A stretch of DNA of 11,963 nt from a virus, in the UHGV virus genome UHGV-0046228; one strand, 5' to 3'. Position 1 is the first letter of the stretch, and every line of letters starts with the position of its first letter. The notes beneath the pieces are model-generated. The model was not told the origin of the DNA. It searched no databases and saw only the letters and a program-made list of their open reading frames with translations. Made by a program: the position numbers and the translations under genes. Below are positions 3,661-11,963 of this stretch, piece after piece.

Positions 3661-4097
3661 TACGCAACCCTCCCGAAGTAATCACCTGAGTAGCGAACTT
3701 CACGGAGTTGCACGCCGTTTTGCACAGCAAATGCCTGGCTGTATTCGATGAGACTGGTCATGCGACGGATGCCCATCTTCGCAGTGCTTTCCCGGATGGC
3801 GCAGAACTCCCCTTCCAGACCCGGCACCACTTCACCAGGCTTACCGGTGGCAATGGCATGGCCTGAGACATACAGGACTTTCCATGAAGCGAGGTCGCGC
3901 GACTTGCCAGCCCATTGCAATTGCTTCGCTGTATCGCCACAGAGAGCGTGGAAGAGGTCGTTTTGGGCGAGAGTGCGGTCAGCCTCAGAAAACTTCACCA
4001 CGAGCGGCAGAGCGTCGTTAACGGGCAGCTTCCTGATGTAGTCGATGAGGTTATCGCGAACGCGTTCGTCGCGGAGGTAGAAAACAGGCTGTTTCAT
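3660..4097 (-). CDS. ninB: NinB (Orf) recombination mediator
   Basis: Translation from internal Met (MKQPVFYLRDE...) is 145 aa and co-linear with lambda NinB as recalled (QN..L...GD......W.G, SWK core); GGAGGTGG SD 6 nt upstream of ATG 4097..4095. Confidence 0.85.
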   Translation of the reverse strand: MKQPVFYLRDERVRDNLIDYIRKLPVNDALPLVVKFSEADRTLAQNDLFHALCGDTAKQLQWAGKSRDLASWKVLYVSGHAIATGKPGEVVPGLEGEFCAIRESTAKMGIRRMTSLIEYSQAFAVQNGVQLREVRYSGDYFGRVA

Positions 4098-4129
4098 ACG
4101 CCACCTCCGAGAGGTAACGCAGAATACAG

Positions 4130-4243
4130 AAAATCGCAGGTGCATTTCTGCATCTGTGACAAGGTGAGAAGTTCATATTGTGGTCGCATTTAAGTCCCCT
4201 TAAATGCGAAGAAGTCTGCCAGGGTTGTTCAGGCCGCTGGCAG
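4130..4243 (-). other. Structured RNA element: three consecutive hairpins ending in a U-rich tract (tR2-like terminator, leader or small RNA)
   Basis: Minus strand: TCTGCCAG-14 nt loop-CTGGCAGA; CGCATTTAAG-GGGA-CTTAAATGCG (10-bp perfect stem); CAGATGCA-GAAA-TGCACCTG (GNRA-type loop) followed by CGATTTTCTGTATTCTG. Confidence 0.35.
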
Positions 4244-6569: not shown

Positions 6570-6865
6570 GCTGACACCCTCCCGTAAAACGCCAGTACAC
6601 GCTGCATCGCCGGACTGTTTCGGCACTCCTGAAATATTCCGTTGGTGCAGCTACGCGCGGTACCAGCCTGCTCTTCCGGCGTAGCCAGGCGATAAGTCAC
6701 CGTTCGCCAGACCTTGCTCACCCGGATAATTTTTCGAGACTTTTCCAGATCGATAGCGTTCTTCGTGATGCAGTTGATGGTCATGCCGCACTCTGTGGCC
6801 ACATCCTTCGCGGTGAAGGTCCGGTGCGTTTCGAGATAACGCAGAATTGCCTGCTTGCCTTTCAT
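6566..6865 (-). CDS. ren: Ren-like protein (lambda Ren, resistance to Rex exclusion)
   Basis: 99-aa translation MKGKQAILRYLETHRTFTAKDVA...KVWRTVTYRLATPEE...FQECRNSPAMQRVLAFYG is co-linear with lambda Ren as recalled; ATGA overlap with the P stop; sits directly after P as in lambda. Confidence 0.8.
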   Translation of the reverse strand: MKGKQAILRYLETHRTFTAKDVATECGMTINCITKNAIDLEKSRKIIRVSKVWRTVTYRLATPEEQAGTARSCTNGIFQECRNSPAMQRVLAFYGRVSA

Positions 6866-7656
6866 TGAATAAGCCCTCTCTCTTTCCCGCGCTGATACTC
6901 TTCCCAAAGCCATTGGGCCGGGGTGAGAGCGCCGAGAGTCGCCGCATTTGGCATGCACCCGAAGCTTTTTCCTTCCGGGTGATAACCGGCCTGACGGCTC
7001 ACGTGATTTGTCGGGATCACTTCATCAGAATTCTCGAGCGCCAGGACGGGGGATGGTATTTTTTCCCCACCAGCAACTTTCAGCGCCCATTCCTCAAGTT
7101 TTTTTGACGCGTATTTTTCAGTTTCAGCCTCGCTCAGCTGGCGCTGGTACATCGCTCTGCGCGTATCGGTCACAATCCAGTACATGACGTCATGAGACCA
7201 CGGGAAAGCTTCTGCTCCGCCGGTATGCAGCCCTTTTTCGCGGCTATACCGATGGAACTCATTCATCACATCAGCCAGGCCAATGCCAAGTACCGTGCCG
7301 CTATCCTTGCACCATTTGATGAATTGCCCCGGAGAAGGCCAGAAGGGTGATTCACTGGCGCGGGCATGCCGTACACCTGCGGAAAGTTGTTCGCGGGTGC
7401 GGATCCCATTCTCTGAAAACGCTGCGATCCACTGACGCTTTGCCGTTTTCTCGTCTGCGTCAGTTTTCAGGTTTGTCTGCGTAGACGCAGGGAAAATCTG
7501 CTTCAGCTGCCGAAAGAGAGAATCAACGAGGCTTTCCGCTTCGGGATTTATTACCTTCTGCTGGTCGGCGTTTCCGTTAGCCATTCTGGATAGCAGTGCC
7601 CCGTCACGCCCGTTAACTGCCTGCACAAGTTGGTTATTCACAGGAAGTCCTCCCAT
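6862..7656 (-). CDS. P: Replication protein P (DnaB helicase loader)
   Basis: 264 aa, co-linear with lambda P as recalled (FPAS, RRQWIAAFSENGIRTREQ, PFWPSPGQFIKWC, YWIVT); start overlaps the 3' end of the O-like gene. Confidence 0.9.
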   Translation of the reverse strand: MGGLPVNNQLVQAVNGRDGALLSRMANGNADQQKVINPEAESLVDSLFRQLKQIFPASTQTNLKTDADEKTAKRQWIAAFSENGIRTREQLSAGVRHARASESPFWPSPGQFIKWCKDSGTVLGIGLADVMNEFHRYSREKGLHTGGAEAFPWSHDVMYWIVTDTRRAMYQRQLSEAETEKYASKKLEEWALKVAGGEKIPSPVLALENSDEVIPTNHVSRQAGYHPEGKSFGCMPNAATLGALTPAQWLWEEYQRGKERGLIQ

Positions 7657-8423: not shown

Positions 8424-8500
8424 CGCAATTGACTGACGTTTATTGCACCAGAAAGCTGTTGGTGTTCGAGCACCACAGCTTTCGCCATTTCTGTTGTTCT
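8424..8500 (+). ncRNA. Candidate OOP-like short antisense RNA (about 70 nt)
   Basis: Predicted start about 7 nt after CATAAT; ends at a 13-bp hairpin (GAAAGCTGTTGGTG / CACCACAGCTTTC, 8451-8483, one bulged T, 6-nt loop) followed by T-rich GCCATTTCTGTTGTTCTC, abutting the YdaT-like stop. Confidence 0.3.
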
Positions 8501-9042
8501 CACATAACCCCCAGCATCGATGTCACCATCGTCATCAGCGGCCCTACCTGCTCCGGCATGAGGCGAAACAATGACGCTATGCCCTCGCTTACCTCCTTCA
8601 TTTTCTGGTGCTCAGGCGCGTTCAGGAGAACGGCTTGCTTTGCTTCTGAACATTCCTTCATGGCAGATGCGATCAGCGACATGGTGTCGTTCTGCTGCGC
8701 CAGGCGTGTACGAAACTCAACAGGAAGAACAGACATGATTGCCGGGGTCAGTTCTCTAACGTTCTCGCGGTACTGATCGGAGTCGACGCGGTTATCCAGA
8801 AAGCGCAAAGGATTCTGGCGAGCCCTGCTGATGTCTTGCAGGAAGCTGACGGCGGTACCGCCCTGCTCCCGGTATTCGTTGATGATCAGCGCTGACACTA
8901 CGTCCTGATTGTCCAGGGACGACGACCATGCACGGACCGCATCGCGGATTTTGTCGTGACCTGGCTCCGCCTTAGGTTGAGCGCGGTTTATCATCGCTCC
9001 CGGGTGTATTCCGGTATTGTGTTGATACGCAAGTGAATGCAT
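8500..9042 (-). CDS. YdaT-like protein (Rac-type; occupies the CII position)
   Basis: 180-aa ORF downstream of the cro-like gene; segment IINEYREQGG...ELTPAIMSVLPVEFRTRL parallels E. coli YdaT as recalled; AAGGGA SD 5 nt upstream of ATG 9042..9040. Confidence 0.65.
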   Translation of the reverse strand: MHSLAYQHNTGIHPGAMINRAQPKAEPGHDKIRDAVRAWSSSLDNQDVVSALIINEYREQGGTAVSFLQDISRARQNPLRFLDNRVDSDQYRENVRELTPAIMSVLPVEFRTRLAQQNDTMSLIASAMKECSEAKQAVLLNAPEHQKMKEVSEGIASLFRLMPEQVGPLMTMVTSMLGVM

Positions 9043-9072
9043 TGCTTTCCCTTTCGTGGTTAGAGCCGCCGG

Positions 9073-9294
9073 TTAGGCGGCAAAGATACCTGGATATAGA
9101 ACTTCGCGAGGAAGTCCGGTTACTTCTTCGTATTTACGCATTTTTGTTACTGGAAGGCTGCCACCTCGCTTTTTAAGCATATTGATGGCCTGAGGCGTTA
9201 CGCCGACCTTTTCAGCAAGCACCTTTTGAGAGCCGCCCACTGCATTAATGGCTTTCTCAAGCGGGGTGCTGGCGTTGGATTTTTTGTTGATCAT
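9073..9294 (-). CDS. Cro-like DNA-binding protein (YdaS / Cro-CI HTH family)
   Basis: 73-aa ORF with HTH segment GGSQKVLAEKVGVTPQAINMLKKRG; divergent from the repressor gene; GGAGC SD 5 nt upstream. Confidence 0.8.
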   Translation of the reverse strand: MINKKSNASTPLEKAINAVGGSQKVLAEKVGVTPQAINMLKKRGGSLPVTKMRKYEEVTGLPREVLYPGIFAA

Positions 9295-9314
9295 GTTTTG
9301 CTCCGCTCATGTGT

Positions 9315-9386
9315 AATCAACACCATGTTAATTCATGGCGTGGATTAAATCAACATTATGGTGATGGAAAAAATCCACATGTTGTT
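9315..9386. promoter_or_regulatory. Divergent operator/promoter region (OR-like) between cro-like and cI genes
   Basis: Three related sites: AATCAACAccaTGTTAATT (9315-9333), AATCAACAttaTGGTGAT (9348-9365), AATCCACAtgTTGTTT (9372-9387). Candidate pR on the minus strand: TTGATT (9353..9348), 17 nt, TAACAT (9330..9325), overlapping sites 2 and 1. Confidence 0.5.
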
Positions 9387-9411
9387 TACCATGCATGGAG
9401 CGGAGGGTTTT

Positions 9412-10131
9412 ATGAGCAGCATTTCTGAAAGAATTAAATTTTTACTGGCAAGGGAAGGCTTGAAGCAGCGGGATTTGGCTGAGGCTTTGTCGACTAGCCC
9501 ACAGACCGTCAACAACTGGATAAAAAGAGACGCGTTAAGTCGTGAGGCGGCGCAACAAATATCTGAAAAATTCGGTTATTCTCTTGACTGGTTATTAAAT
9601 GGAGAGGGTTCTCCAAAGAAGGATCTGGAGAGCAACATCCCGCCAGAGTCTGAGTGGGGAACTGTCGACGCTTGGGACAAAAATACCCCCCTACCTGACG
9701 ATGAGGTGGAAGTACCGTTTCTGAAGGATATCGAGTTTGCGTGTGGTGATGGGCGTGTTCATAGCGAAGATCATAACGGCTTTAAACTGAGGTTCTCCAA
9801 GGCAACGCTTCGCCGGGTAGGAGCTAACACAGATGGGTCTGGCGTTCTGTGTTTCCCGGCAACCGGTGACAGCATGGAGCCAATGATTCCAGATGGAACC
9901 ACTGTGGCTGTGGATACAAATAACAAACGCGTTGTCGATGGAAAACTTTACGCTATTGGACAAGGCGATGGTGGTGAAGGGCAACTAAAAAGAATTAAGC
10001 AGCTCTACAGGAAACCAGGCGGAAAGCTAATTATCCGCAGCTACAACAATGAGGCCTACCCTGATGAAGAAGCTGACATTGATGATGTTGAGATAATCGG
10101 CCGCCTCTTCTGGTACTCGGTATTGCTGTAG
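9412..10131 (+). CDS. CI-type prophage repressor (N-terminal HTH, C-terminal S24 LexA-like autopeptidase)
   Basis: Start at ATG 9412 (MSSISERIKF...) with GGAGG 5 nt upstream; HTH LKQRDLAEALSTSPQTVNNWIKR; S24 catalytic motifs GDSMEP (Ser) and LKRIK (Lys). Confidence 0.9.
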   Translation: MSSISERIKFLLAREGLKQRDLAEALSTSPQTVNNWIKRDALSREAAQQISEKFGYSLDWLLNGEGSPKKDLESNIPPESEWGTVDAWDKNTPLPDDEVEVPFLKDIEFACGDGRVHSEDHNGFKLRFSKATLRRVGANTDGSGVLCFPATGDSMEPMIPDGTTVAVDTNNKRVVDGKLYAIGQGDGGEGQLKRIKQLYRKPGGKLIIRSYNNEAYPDEEADIDDVEIIGRLFWYSVLL

Positions 10132-10235
10132 CGGTGGCCTGAAGAGACGTTTGGTTAAGGCCAGCAACGGATCACAACAAACACATGGGGCGGCGGATTA
10201 AGGGTGATGGAGAATCGAAATAAGTTGAGGTCAAC

Positions 10236-10391
10236 ATGAACACGTTCAGCATAATCGCGATACCTTTTTTTGCCCTTTCAGTGGTTCTGTTGACTCTTGG
10301 CGCTACCAGGAAGAACCAAGCCAGCTTCATCGTTGGCGGCGTGTTTATGGCGTCATGCGTGGTTAATGCCATTATCGGCATGTCTCTTTGA
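10236..10391 (+). CDS. Small two-helix membrane peptide (51 aa), immediately downstream of cI
   Basis: Manual translation MNTFSIIAIPFFALSVVLLTLGATRKNQASFIVGGVFMASCVVNAIIGMSL; two hydrophobic spans separated by RKNQ; GAGG SD 5 nt upstream; no convincing terminator between cI and this ORF. Confidence 0.5.
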   Translation: MNTFSIIAIPFFALSVVLLTLGATRKNQASFIVGGVFMASCVVNAIIGMSL

Positions 10392-10583
10392 GCGCTATGA
10401 GATCAGGCATCCTCGTTACTTTGTCATGTGTGACAGCCTGGTATGCACTCTGCGAGCTTTGATGTGGTTTACCACTTTAATAGTCACCGTATCACTAAAC
10501 TGATTAGCTTTACTCATACTCTTGTGGATTCGCTATTTCTGATGTCAATGCAAAAAAATACTAAGGAAACAAAAAGGATACTT

Positions 10584-10850
10584 ATGTCAGATAACACTAT
10601 TAAAATCATACCTCAGCACATGACCGCCACATCAGTTCTTATTACGCCTGATCGTGCTGAAACAATCATTACTTTTCACCGCCATGAATTTGAGCATCAC
10701 ATGCAGTCTGATGAGCAAGGAAAGAATAGCTTCCAAGTAAAAGTTGAGTTGACCCCTAACATGTCAGTCTCAATGAGCCCGGATCAAGCTGTTGCATTAG
10801 TAAAATCATTACAGGTAGCTCTCAGGGATAATGGGCTATGGAAAGACTGA
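10584..10850 (+). CDS. Hypothetical protein (88 aa), first gene of the AT-rich module
   Basis: Preferred start ATG 10584 (MSDNTIKIIPQHM...) with AAGGA 5 nt upstream; the longer track ORF (from 10443) lacks an SD. His-rich segment FHRHEFEHHMQ; stop overlaps the next gene's start by 13 nt. Confidence 0.5.
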   Translation: MSDNTIKIIPQHMTATSVLITPDRAETIITFHRHEFEHHMQSDEQGKNSFQVKVELTPNMSVSMSPDQAVALVKSLQVALRDNGLWKD

Positions 10851-11488
10851 AGCCAGTTTCTTCAGTTCAACCTACCTCAGGAACAACATCATCAGTTCTT
10901 CCAAGTATTATAGTTAGTGCAACCCTAGCAGCGACAACCGTTTCTCCTTATGGGGATCCATCTCAGTACCAAAGTATTGGTATTGATGCTAAGGTATCAA
11001 ATAGAGTTTCATACGCCATGGACGAAACGGGTTTGCGCCCAAGTAAGGAAGATGTAGCGATGAAGAGTGATACCCTGGAGGTAAGCGTGAGCGGAATGTC
11101 CAGAGAAGAACTTGACGCAAAGCTTTCACAAAACAAATCAGAGGTAGAGTCTATTGCTGCGGAAATGCGTCGCGAATCAGCTGACTTTAAAACCTATTAT
11201 ACTCAGCAATTTTCTTCTATTGAGAGAGGTATTGCTGAAATTAAAGGTGAAATCGGCGGTTTGAAAACGGGACTTACAACGACTCAGTGGGCGATGGCCG
11301 TTGGCTTGACTTTAGTTACTGTGATTCTGTCTGGCGTGATGTTAGCCTCAAGTTGGATTATCTCCGGCAATGACAAGTCACCATCAGTAACCAGCCCGGC
11401 TCCAATTATAATACAGGTACCGACACAGCAACCATTAACGAGCGCTCCAACTAACCAATCGTCATCACAACAAGCTCCTAAGCAATAA
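10838..11488 (+). CDS. Coiled-coil protein with C-terminal transmembrane anchor and Ser/Thr/Pro/Gln-rich tail (216 aa)
   Basis: Charged heptad-like region (SREELDAKLSQNKSEVESIAAEMRRESADFKTYY...ERGIAEIKGEIGGLKTGL), a single ~23-residue hydrophobic span (WAMAVGLTLVTVILSGVMLASSWII) and a low-complexity tail; AT-rich codon usage unlike the flanking phage genes; intrinsic terminator directly after the stop. Confidence 0.6.
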   Translation: MERLKPVSSVQPTSGTTSSVLPSIIVSATLAATTVSPYGDPSQYQSIGIDAKVSNRVSYAMDETGLRPSKEDVAMKSDTLEVSVSGMSREELDAKLSQNKSEVESIAAEMRRESADFKTYYTQQFSSIERGIAEIKGEIGGLKTGLTTTQWAMAVGLTLVTVILSGVMLASSWIISGNDKSPSVTSPAPIIIQVPTQQPLTSAPTNQSSSQQAPKQ

Positions 11489-11490
11489 AT

Positions 11491-11517
11491 AAACCCGGCC
11501 ACCGCGCCGGGTTTTTA
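11491..11517 (+). terminator. Rho-independent terminator after the AT-rich module
   Basis: AAACCCGGC-CACCGC-GCCGGGTTTTT: 6-bp GC stem extendable by three A-U pairs, T5 run, 3 nt after the TAA stop. Confidence 0.7.
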
Positions 11518-11963
11518 CTGCCCTACTCTTCCCTCAGCATCAGCACATCCAGTGCCAGCTCTACTGCCAAACAACCATCACCAAAAACAAAACGTAAAAT
11601 AAATATACTTTAAGTTCATTGACTTACATTTAAATGAACTATTGCCAAATTAAAAATGTCCTTTTGGTTCTTTACATTGATGAACCATTAGTCAATTTTC
11701 ATCTCATCCAAACAACAACGTTGGCGCCGGTGATAGGTAACAACGCTCCGTTAGCCGCGATAAGGCAAAGGTGAAGAGATGATCCGCGAAGAAGCCAAGC
11801 CTGCATGGCGTAGTTTTTGGTTAAAGGTCGTTCCGTTTTTGGTTGCTGTCCTTTTTTTTAGCTTCGCTTGCTGGGGTGGAAAATGAGCAATCACGCCCTT
11901 CCTTCCCTGATTTACTGCCTGCTCGTTTGAGGCGTACTCTGGGACGTATGGGTTTTACAAATT

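Follow-up and report, generated by a model that had tools for sequence, protein, structure and literature searches.

A probable Klebsiella-phage-type early-left control region next to a phi80-type repressor module in viral genome UHGV-0046228

The right end of viral genome UHGV-0046228 (positions 11520-11963 of the window, by which we mean the whole 11,963-nucleotide stretch of DNA that was analyzed) is, in our reading of the sequence comparisons, most likely the pL-type control region and left-operon start from a lambdoid phage of Klebsiella type. A shared terminator links it to a cI-moron unit with phi80 immunity, and the left arm is most likely a recombinant one that is probably decaying. 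What lies there is best read as a heterologous early-left promoter/operator cassette followed by the head of the left operon, and not as a toxin locus or plain spacer. Elements of this kind are commonplace; the combination is unusual and may be decayed or artefactual. The copy in the window looks degraded, with five substitutions in OL2, OL1, and the −10 element, a stop at codon 16 of the second small gene, and a 14-codon stub of a further gene.

The window covers the early region of a phi80-immunity lambdoid prophage, which runs in inverted orientation relative to the usual lambda map. Its minus strand carries a P gene (6862-7656) and an O-like gene in the same early region as P and cro, along with a YdaT-like cII analogue (8500-9042) and a YdaS-like cro (9073-9294). 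YdaS/YdaT pairs have been identified experimentally as Cro/CII analogues, and YdaT is homologous to phi80 CII (PMC8630535). The window OR consists of three phi80-type CI operators (9315-9333, 9348-9366, and 9372-9390) that are identical to the annotated phi80 OR, and the CI repressor gene (9358-10131, plus strand) encodes an HTH and an S24 peptidase (Pfam Peptidase_S24 and Phage_CI_repr). This gene shares 94% nucleotide identity with phi80 cI (gene 30), and the cro-OR-cI DNA taken together is 94% identical to phi80 and 92% identical to HK225; the exact window cI was found only on short Logan contigs, all ending before the studied stretch. Between cI and pL lies a plus-strand moron cassette with its terminator (10134-11515), comprising an HK97 gp49C-like ORF (10443-10850) and a gp48-like ORF (10838-11488) that match phrog_26809 and phrog_5820, PHROGs which are both of unknown function. 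E. coli prophages of several immunity types carry this moron cassette at 99.6 to 99.9% identity, also between cI and pL, and a look-up of the window gp48 returned ten other contexts, none of which resembles the window.

The moron cassette closes with a bidirectional intrinsic terminator, AAACCCGGCCACCGCGCCGGGTTT(TT), recovered on both strands at 11491-11514 by a terminator scan, in agreement with the first-pass annotation, which had placed a terminator ahead of the stretch. That annotation had also raised the possibility of a module boundary here, and the comparative data bear it out: HK225 and the E. coli prophages cease to match at 11515-11532, and Klebsiella temperate phages (2b LV-2017, 2 LV-2017, and ST15-VIM1phi2.1) match from the terminator onward at 90 to 94% identity. 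A few E. coli prophages also match the window to the right of the terminator, where identity ranges from 88 to 94% overall. About 28 nt at the terminator are common to HK225 and the Klebsiella-type phages, and the flanks differ on both sides. The terminator is a recurrent natural mosaic joint, occurring with many different left flanks.

The two sides of this joint each have close counterparts. HK225 (imm80, JQ086371) is 96% identical to the window over 9020-11524, a span that includes cro, OR, cI, the gp49C/gp48 morons, and the terminator, but it continues after the terminator with an intact 68-aa minus-strand gene, a phi80-type OL, pL, and a phi80-like nutL, where the window has the Klebsiella-type cassette. 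Klebsiella phages 2b LV-2017 (KY271395) and ST15-VIM1phi2.1 (MK448228), together with 46 IMG/VR contigs, share the terminator, the gene remnant described below, the cassette, and the leader with the window at 90 to 94% identity, and share ORF1 to ORF3 in more divergent form (for ORF1 of the named phages, ∼50% protein identity). Unlike the window, they have their own 240-aa CI, an OR with matching operators, a perfect OL1, a CATTAT −10 element, and a full-length ORF2. The gene order in annotated relatives is cI, variable morons, terminator, intergenic region, two or three small plus-strand ORFs, gamL, bet, and exo, and four of these relatives have no annotated N gene in the interval from pL to gam. 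The stretch thereby corresponds in position to lambda OL/pL together with the beginning of the left operon, and it is transcribed away from cI.

Immediately beyond the terminator is a non-coding 3′ gene remnant on the minus strand (11523-11567; AVELALDVLMLREE and stop), which consists of the last 14 codons and the stop of a 67-aa gene belonging to phrog_3946. Its source gene is found at 4032-4235 of related locus L001, where the translation ends in AVELALDVLMPREE before the stop, and the 67-aa phrog_3946 gene is intact in MK448234 and in E. coli ES2. The same 14-codon stub is present in every relative that has this operator cassette (46/46), and the ORF list contains no minus-strand ORF of at least 20 aa in the studied stretch.

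The promoter/operator cassette that follows (11576-11700, plus strand) is of the Klebsiella-phage immunity type. It is AT-rich (GC = 0.256), and the earlier impression that the sequence stays AT-rich after the terminator holds for this segment but not for its surroundings, since 11516-11575, 11701-11778, and 11887-11963 have GC contents of 0.49 to 0.53 (0.46 to 0.53 over the adjoining blocks in general; window mean, 0.51). In the relatives, the motif TGWAC-N5-GTWCA, searched with up to one mismatch, occurs as a triplet at OL, at −95, −42, and −18 relative to the conserved leader, and again as a triplet between cro and cI (OR) with spacings of 24 and 33 bp. Both triplets are present in L006, L007, and 37 of the 47 IMG/VR loci with this cassette (the remaining 10 have at most 2 kb of upstream DNA), so that in these 37 relatives the OL motif is that of their own OR. 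OL1 lies in the promoter spacer in the relatives, and OL2 lies at the −35 element, 24 bp from OL1.

The corresponding sites in the window are altered to differing extents. Operator-like OL3 (11604-11618, TATAC-TTTAA-GTTCA) has one mismatch, as in the relatives. Predicted OL2 (11657-11671) abuts the −35 element and reads TGTCC-TTTTG-GTTCT (relatives, TGTAC-TTTTG-GTACT), and predicted OL1 (11681-11695), between the −35 and −10 elements, reads TGAAC-CATTA-GTCAA (relatives, TGAAC-CATTA-GTACA, a perfect match), which leaves the window OL1 and OL2 with two mismatches each to TGWAC-N5-GTWCA. The predicted early-left promoter (11671-11699, plus strand) combines a −35 element TTTACA (11671-11676), a 17-nt spacer, and a −10 element AATTTT (11694-11699) that is CATTAT in 46/46 relatives. 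A promoter scan detected TTTACA-17-CATTAT in L006 and detected no plus-strand promoter at the cassette in the window, because the change from CATTAT to AATTTT takes the −10 element under the threshold. Operators and promoter alike are predictions, assigned by motif position and co-occurrence only. Both inverted repeats that had been reported from the sequence are present, and they differ in standing. The 8-bp repeat AGTTCATT (11613-11620)/AATGAACT (11633-11640), one arm of which is the right half of OL3, is kept in 46 relatives, though taken alone it could be a chance occurrence (expected number, 0.13; reached in 8.6% of shuffled sequences). The second, TTGATGAACCATTAGTCAA (11677-11695), contains OL1 and owes its TTGA...TCAA symmetry to two window-private substitutions (GTCAAT in the window versus GTACAT in 46/46 relatives).

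Downstream of the cassette, the early-left operon begins with an 80-nt 5′ leader (11699-11778, plus strand). It opens with a conserved 19-mer, TCATCTCATCCAAACAACA (11699-11717), which is found in 89 IMG/VR contigs; continues through a variable hairpin (∼11719-11745), the region in which the three main leader alleles differ; and ends with a Shine-Dalgarno sequence, AAGGTGA (11768-11774), ahead of ORF1. At least six alternative, unrelated promoter/operator cassettes precede this same leader, and the leader and the genes behind it are therefore a common unit to which control cassettes of different immunity specificity have been attached, making this a clean example of a mosaic joint at −10/+1. 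On the opposite strand, a terminator-like hairpin with TGTTGTTTGG (11729-11716, minus strand) is kept in three leader alleles.

We considered two regulatory roles for the leader RNA and found evidence for neither. A structured cis-acting element (e.g., HK022 put-like) is not indicated, as none of the 13 RNAalifold pairs among 13 leader variants shows a compensatory change, the fold of the window leader is no better than that of shuffled sequences (z = −0.87), and Rfam returned nothing credible for the stretch, only chance-level matches at a permissive threshold. An N/nut antitermination module is not indicated either: no boxA (YGCTCTTWA, at most one mismatch) was found right of 11516, ORF1 to ORF3 have no match to the Pfam N_peptide and N36 families, and the leader hairpin varies among alleles without covariation. 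The first reading had likewise reported neither a nut-like boxA/boxB nor an N-like Arg-rich start.

The first gene of the operon, ORF1 (11779-11886, plus strand), encodes a 35-aa single-helix membrane peptide, and the 35-codon ORF with one hydrophobic helix described from the sequence was exact in both coordinates and translation. Among 94 related loci, 66 have ORF1 in the same frame and always at 35 or 36 aa (14 protein variants), with the shared motif MIRE..PAW..F.[LV]KV....CWG, and tblastn located it in 19 Klebsiella phages. Neither ORF1 nor ORF2 matches a Pfam, PHROG, or NCBIfam family. Several phage records carry no annotation for either, and searching for ORF1 by exact look-up returned no called gene. 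ORF2 (11883-11963, plus strand), which is ATGA-coupled to ORF1, is a nonsense-shortened copy of a 36-aa membrane peptide gene. The 15-codon ORF noted earlier does exist at 11883-11930, but it is not a standalone gene: a TGA stop at 11928-11930 (codon 16) replaces TGC, and homology to the conserved 36-codon gene goes on in frame to the window end. In the relatives, ORF2 is 36 aa long (52/53) and overlaps ORF1 by the same ATGA (−4) arrangement (47/51), and ORF3, which encodes a 64-aa basic protein of phrog_3722, overlaps ORF2 by 8 nt (36/36). Ratios of pN to pS are 0.55 for ORF1, 0.63 for ORF2, and 0.35 for ORF3, and ORF1 has the highest pS of the three (0.335). Its conserved frame and length together with its pN/pS argue that ORF1 is a genuine, weakly constrained, and uncharacterized small membrane-protein gene heading a translationally coupled cluster. 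An ATG is present at 11948, as reported, but the ORF that runs from it off the window is out of frame with the ORF2 homology and absent from relatives (alignment with L045), and this start is probably spurious. By analogy with lambda, the cognate phages would keep pL occluded by their own CI in the lysogen; after induction, transcription from pL would pass through the 80-nt leader and three coupled small genes (for the 35-aa and 36-aa membrane peptides and the 64-aa basic protein) and then into gam, bet, and exo.

The window copy departs from its relatives in a peculiar pattern. Over 297 columns aligned with 46 relatives, it has five private substitutions, all within 11657-11699: 11660 A>C and 11669 A>T in OL2 (A in 46/46 and 45/46 relatives, respectively), 11693 A>C in OL1 (A in 46/46), 11694 C>A in both OL1 and the −10 element (C in 46/46), and 11698 A>T in the −10 element (a column that is otherwise invariant). 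ORF1 differs from its nearest relative at only 3 of 108 nt, and the 81-nt ORF2 part carries 20 to 22 differences (∼25% divergence), with 13 non-synonymous versus 3 synonymous codons in addition to the stop; no closer allele of this ORF2 end was found in phages or E. coli genomes (best match, 83 to 85%). Transitions and transversions number 0:5 in the operator/−10 patch, 0:13 at private positions from 11600 on (panel method), and 3:17 in the ORF2 part relative to the nearest haplotype, versus 137:131 for private differences in the rest of the window and 1947:2636 in pairwise comparisons of natural ORF2 haplotypes. This transversion excess fits sequence error or alteration at the contig end better than ordinary divergence.

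It is therefore conceivable, though on balance rather doubtful, that the elements are as described and their combination is artefactual, produced by an assembly chimera of an HK225-like and a Klebsiella-type phage via the ∼28-nt terminator, with the private changes being sequence errors or alterations near the contig end. Besides the transversion excess and the leap in divergence between ORF1 and the last 81 nt (3/108 to 22/81), this explanation would account for the rarity of the join: neither the junction 47-mer nor the window OL1 31-mer occurs in IMG/VR or JGI metagenomes, no record crosses the moron-terminator-remnant junction in 5,426 E. coli genomes or in INPHARED, and the gp48 moron occurs in none of the 47 loci with this OL, so that the only common sequence at the join is the terminator itself. 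Exact 26-mer and 19-mer scans of GTDB genomes gave nothing, or only chance matches in unrelated MAGs. Other features fit an artefact poorly, in that the sequence has no indels, ORF2 keeps its reading frame and a 17-nt identical core, and errors would hardly be expected to cluster in a distinct patch that coincides exactly with OL2, OL1, and the −10 element, 265 to 300 nt from the end and followed by 96 clean bases. The natural recurrence of the terminator as a joint with many left flanks also speaks against a chimera.

Three possibilities fit these data: a natural recombinant whose unregulated pL was silenced and is decaying, a chimera with low-quality bases at the contig end, and an unusual mutational process. 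The identity of the elements is independent of whether they form a recombinant or an artefact, and the biological meaning of the mismatch between OL and OR depends on the answer. The window ends at 11963, and the left arm beyond, including a possible second repressor or a phi80-type OL, lies outside the sequence. If the join is real, we would speculate that this is a natural hybrid-immunity prophage (phi80-type cI/OR with an unrelated Klebsiella-phage OL/pL) whose left operon escaped the resident repressor and was then silenced by the −10 and operator substitutions and by ORF2 decay, a snapshot of immunity-region recombination being tolerated or domesticated. Separately, and just as tentatively, ORF1 and ORF2 may constitute a new family of paired membrane micro-proteins that are the earliest products of pL in N-less lambdoid phages. 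If the join is not real, the mismatch is instead a caution on chimeric or error-laden contig ends.

A different interpretation offered by the first-pass annotation, a type I toxin-like membrane peptide locus, fares much worse. Under it, ORF1 and an antisense RNA that controls it would together form a type I toxin-antitoxin-like locus, with ORF1 as the toxin. The length of ORF1 (35 aa, below 60 aa), its one hydrophobic helix, and the minus-strand hairpin with TGTTGTTTGG kept in three leader alleles are all compatible with such a locus. However, ORF1 always heads the coupled ORF1-ORF2-ORF3 cluster in the pL operon and does not occur as a stand-alone cassette, consensus scans (which are weak tests) of the window and of L001 found no minus-strand promoter downstream of the hairpin, and Rfam had no match. 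Synonymous sites in ORF1 are unconstrained, and their divergence, at the pS given above, speaks against an overlapping conserved RNA. We consider a toxin function of this kind very unlikely.

Having set the toxin reading aside, we return to the heterologous early-left cassette and to how it relates to the repressor next to it. To score phi80-type sites, we built a matrix from the five annotated 19-bp phi80 CI operators. It gives 21.4, 21.0, and 23.9 bits at the three operators of the window OR and 22.6 to 24.3 bits at the phi80 and HK225 OL, and its maximum in 11490-11963 is 8.3 bits; there is no phi80-type operator right of the terminator. The window's OL motif is thus not shared with its own OR, as it would be at a cognate OL with one immunity specificity. 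The Klebsiella-type relatives show the complementary picture: none of the 47 cassette loci has a phi80-type operator near OR or OL, and the only match of at least 17 bits among them is a single isolated site in L089, ∼10.6 kb upstream of its leader. The CI of these relatives (240 aa; L006, 2820-3542) and the window CI share one architecture, but the two proteins are only 22% identical and their HTH helices differ. We assign 11576-11700 to another, uncharacterized immunity type, as its OL/pL cassette. Because the stretch has no phi80-type operator and the resident CI and OR are phi80-type, the early-left promoter of the window is predicted not to respond to repression by the resident CI.

These comparisons make it extremely improbable that the stretch serves the phi80-type immunity of the window as its cognate OL/pL, under repression by the resident CI. 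Position and orientation would suit that idea, as the stretch follows the cI-side terminator, points in the cI direction, and leads into early-left genes just as lambda pL does. It is at odds, however, with the low matrix scores right of the terminator, with the different OR and CI that accompany the cassette in 37 of 37 informative loci, and with HK225, which shares the window's cI and morons and has a phi80-type OL after the same terminator where the window does not. The proposal that this could be the pL/OL side of the immunity region is accordingly right in kind (an early-left promoter, three operators, and a lambda-like position), but the operators belong to another immunity type than the resident phi80-type cI/OR. 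Least credible of all is that the stretch is an ordinary intergenic spacer with chance ORFs, the case named at the outset as the refuting one, given that leader, operators, and ORF1 are conserved over 46 to 94 phage contigs with frame and length kept and that the operator triplets sit on a detectable promoter, even though the 8-bp inverted repeat alone is not significant and the leader fold is no better than shuffles.

Set beside the pL-OL regions of lambda and phi80, the heterologous cassette agrees in its position after the cI-side terminator and its direction of transcription. In its relatives it also agrees in having a predicted sigma-70 promoter (the scan match being in L006) whose −35/−10 spacer holds one operator, with another at the −35 element at a distance of 24 bp, and in the threefold repetition of the operator motif at the OR of cognate phages. 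It differs in that TGWAC-N5-GTWCA is unrelated to the phi80 operator AATCMACA-N3-TGTTGATT or to lambda operators, that no N gene and no nut/boxA follow the promoter here, that the window operators do not fit the resident OR and cI, and that the window −10 element and two operators carry private substitutions. The phi80 record itself has no annotated nutR. A precedent for mixed specificity is lambda imm(lambda.434), reportedly a laboratory-made and selected lambda/434 hybrid in which the left operator and promoter come from one immunity type and the cI and right operator come from another. The window resembles it in drawing OL/pL and cI/OR from two immunity types, but its arrangement appears in a natural-looking sequence, its non-cognate OL is of an uncharacterized type, and it is known here from one sequence. 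If real, the mismatch would be a rare natural counterpart of laboratory hybrid-immunity phages and would bear on how prophages are disabled.

Independently of the join, the comparison flags a conserved and often unannotated trio of small early genes and provides an operator consensus, TGWAC-N5-GTWCA (three sites at OR and three at OL, with 24-bp pairs), for an uncharacterized immunity type that is common among temperate phages of Klebsiella and E. coli. The third OL site (−95) is weak, and the 28-bp palindrome picked out in the first reading may be the real unit.

At least six unrelated promoter/operator cassettes precede an identical leader 19-mer (window 11699-11717) in 89 IMG/VR contigs (related phage loci L001 to L104), and the -10/+1 of the early-left promoter pL is the site of a mosaic joint. 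To the left of pL, Escherichia coli prophages carry a gp49C/gp48-like moron cassette and terminator 99.6 to 99.9% identical to window 10134-11515; these prophages differ in repressor and in the genes that follow pL (N_peptide, N36, or none). The cassette looks like a freely exchanged module with the terminator as its right boundary.

Where relatives keep an intact 67-aa minus-strand gene (phrog_3946), a promoter-like site on the minus strand, TTGCCG-18-GATAAT (L001 4372-4401), faces pL and overlaps it, with a -10 that reads as the reverse complement of the -10 region of pL. This site is a candidate that could drive the 67-aa gene divergently from pL. The leader itself carries, on the minus strand of the window, a hairpin followed by TGTTGTTTGG (window 11716-11729; L006 4651-4664; L001 4395-4407), which resembles a weak intrinsic terminator in all three leader alleles, with a stem of variable sequence; a search downstream of this hairpin found no antisense promoter.

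In some relatives an extra 53-aa ORF (MTAKKYALECNSEYLRYREK...; L005 1105-1265, minus strand; L006 4714-4875), with no family in Pfam or PHROGs, sits between the leader Shine-Dalgarno sequence and ORF1, the first small gene of the early-left operon; after this extra ORF come another ribosome-binding site and a duplicate of the ORF1 start (ATGATCCG). ORF3 (64 aa, phrog_3722; L001 4664-4858 and homologues), which lies past the right end of the window, has a modestly arginine-rich N terminus (GRAVMMRNRRTGAAW); in these phages no N gene is annotated between pL and gam/bet/exo.

Substitutions private to the window at 11660-11963 are almost exclusively transversions (transitions to transversions, 0:13, 0:5, and 3:17), unlike the remainder of the window, where the spectrum is roughly 1:1; the contig end may therefore be of low quality or have been altered. 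In window 9358-9420, the 257-codon cI ORF begins within OR2/OR3, whereas the phi80 annotation gives a CI of 236 aa, and therefore the true cI start is probably a downstream ATG.
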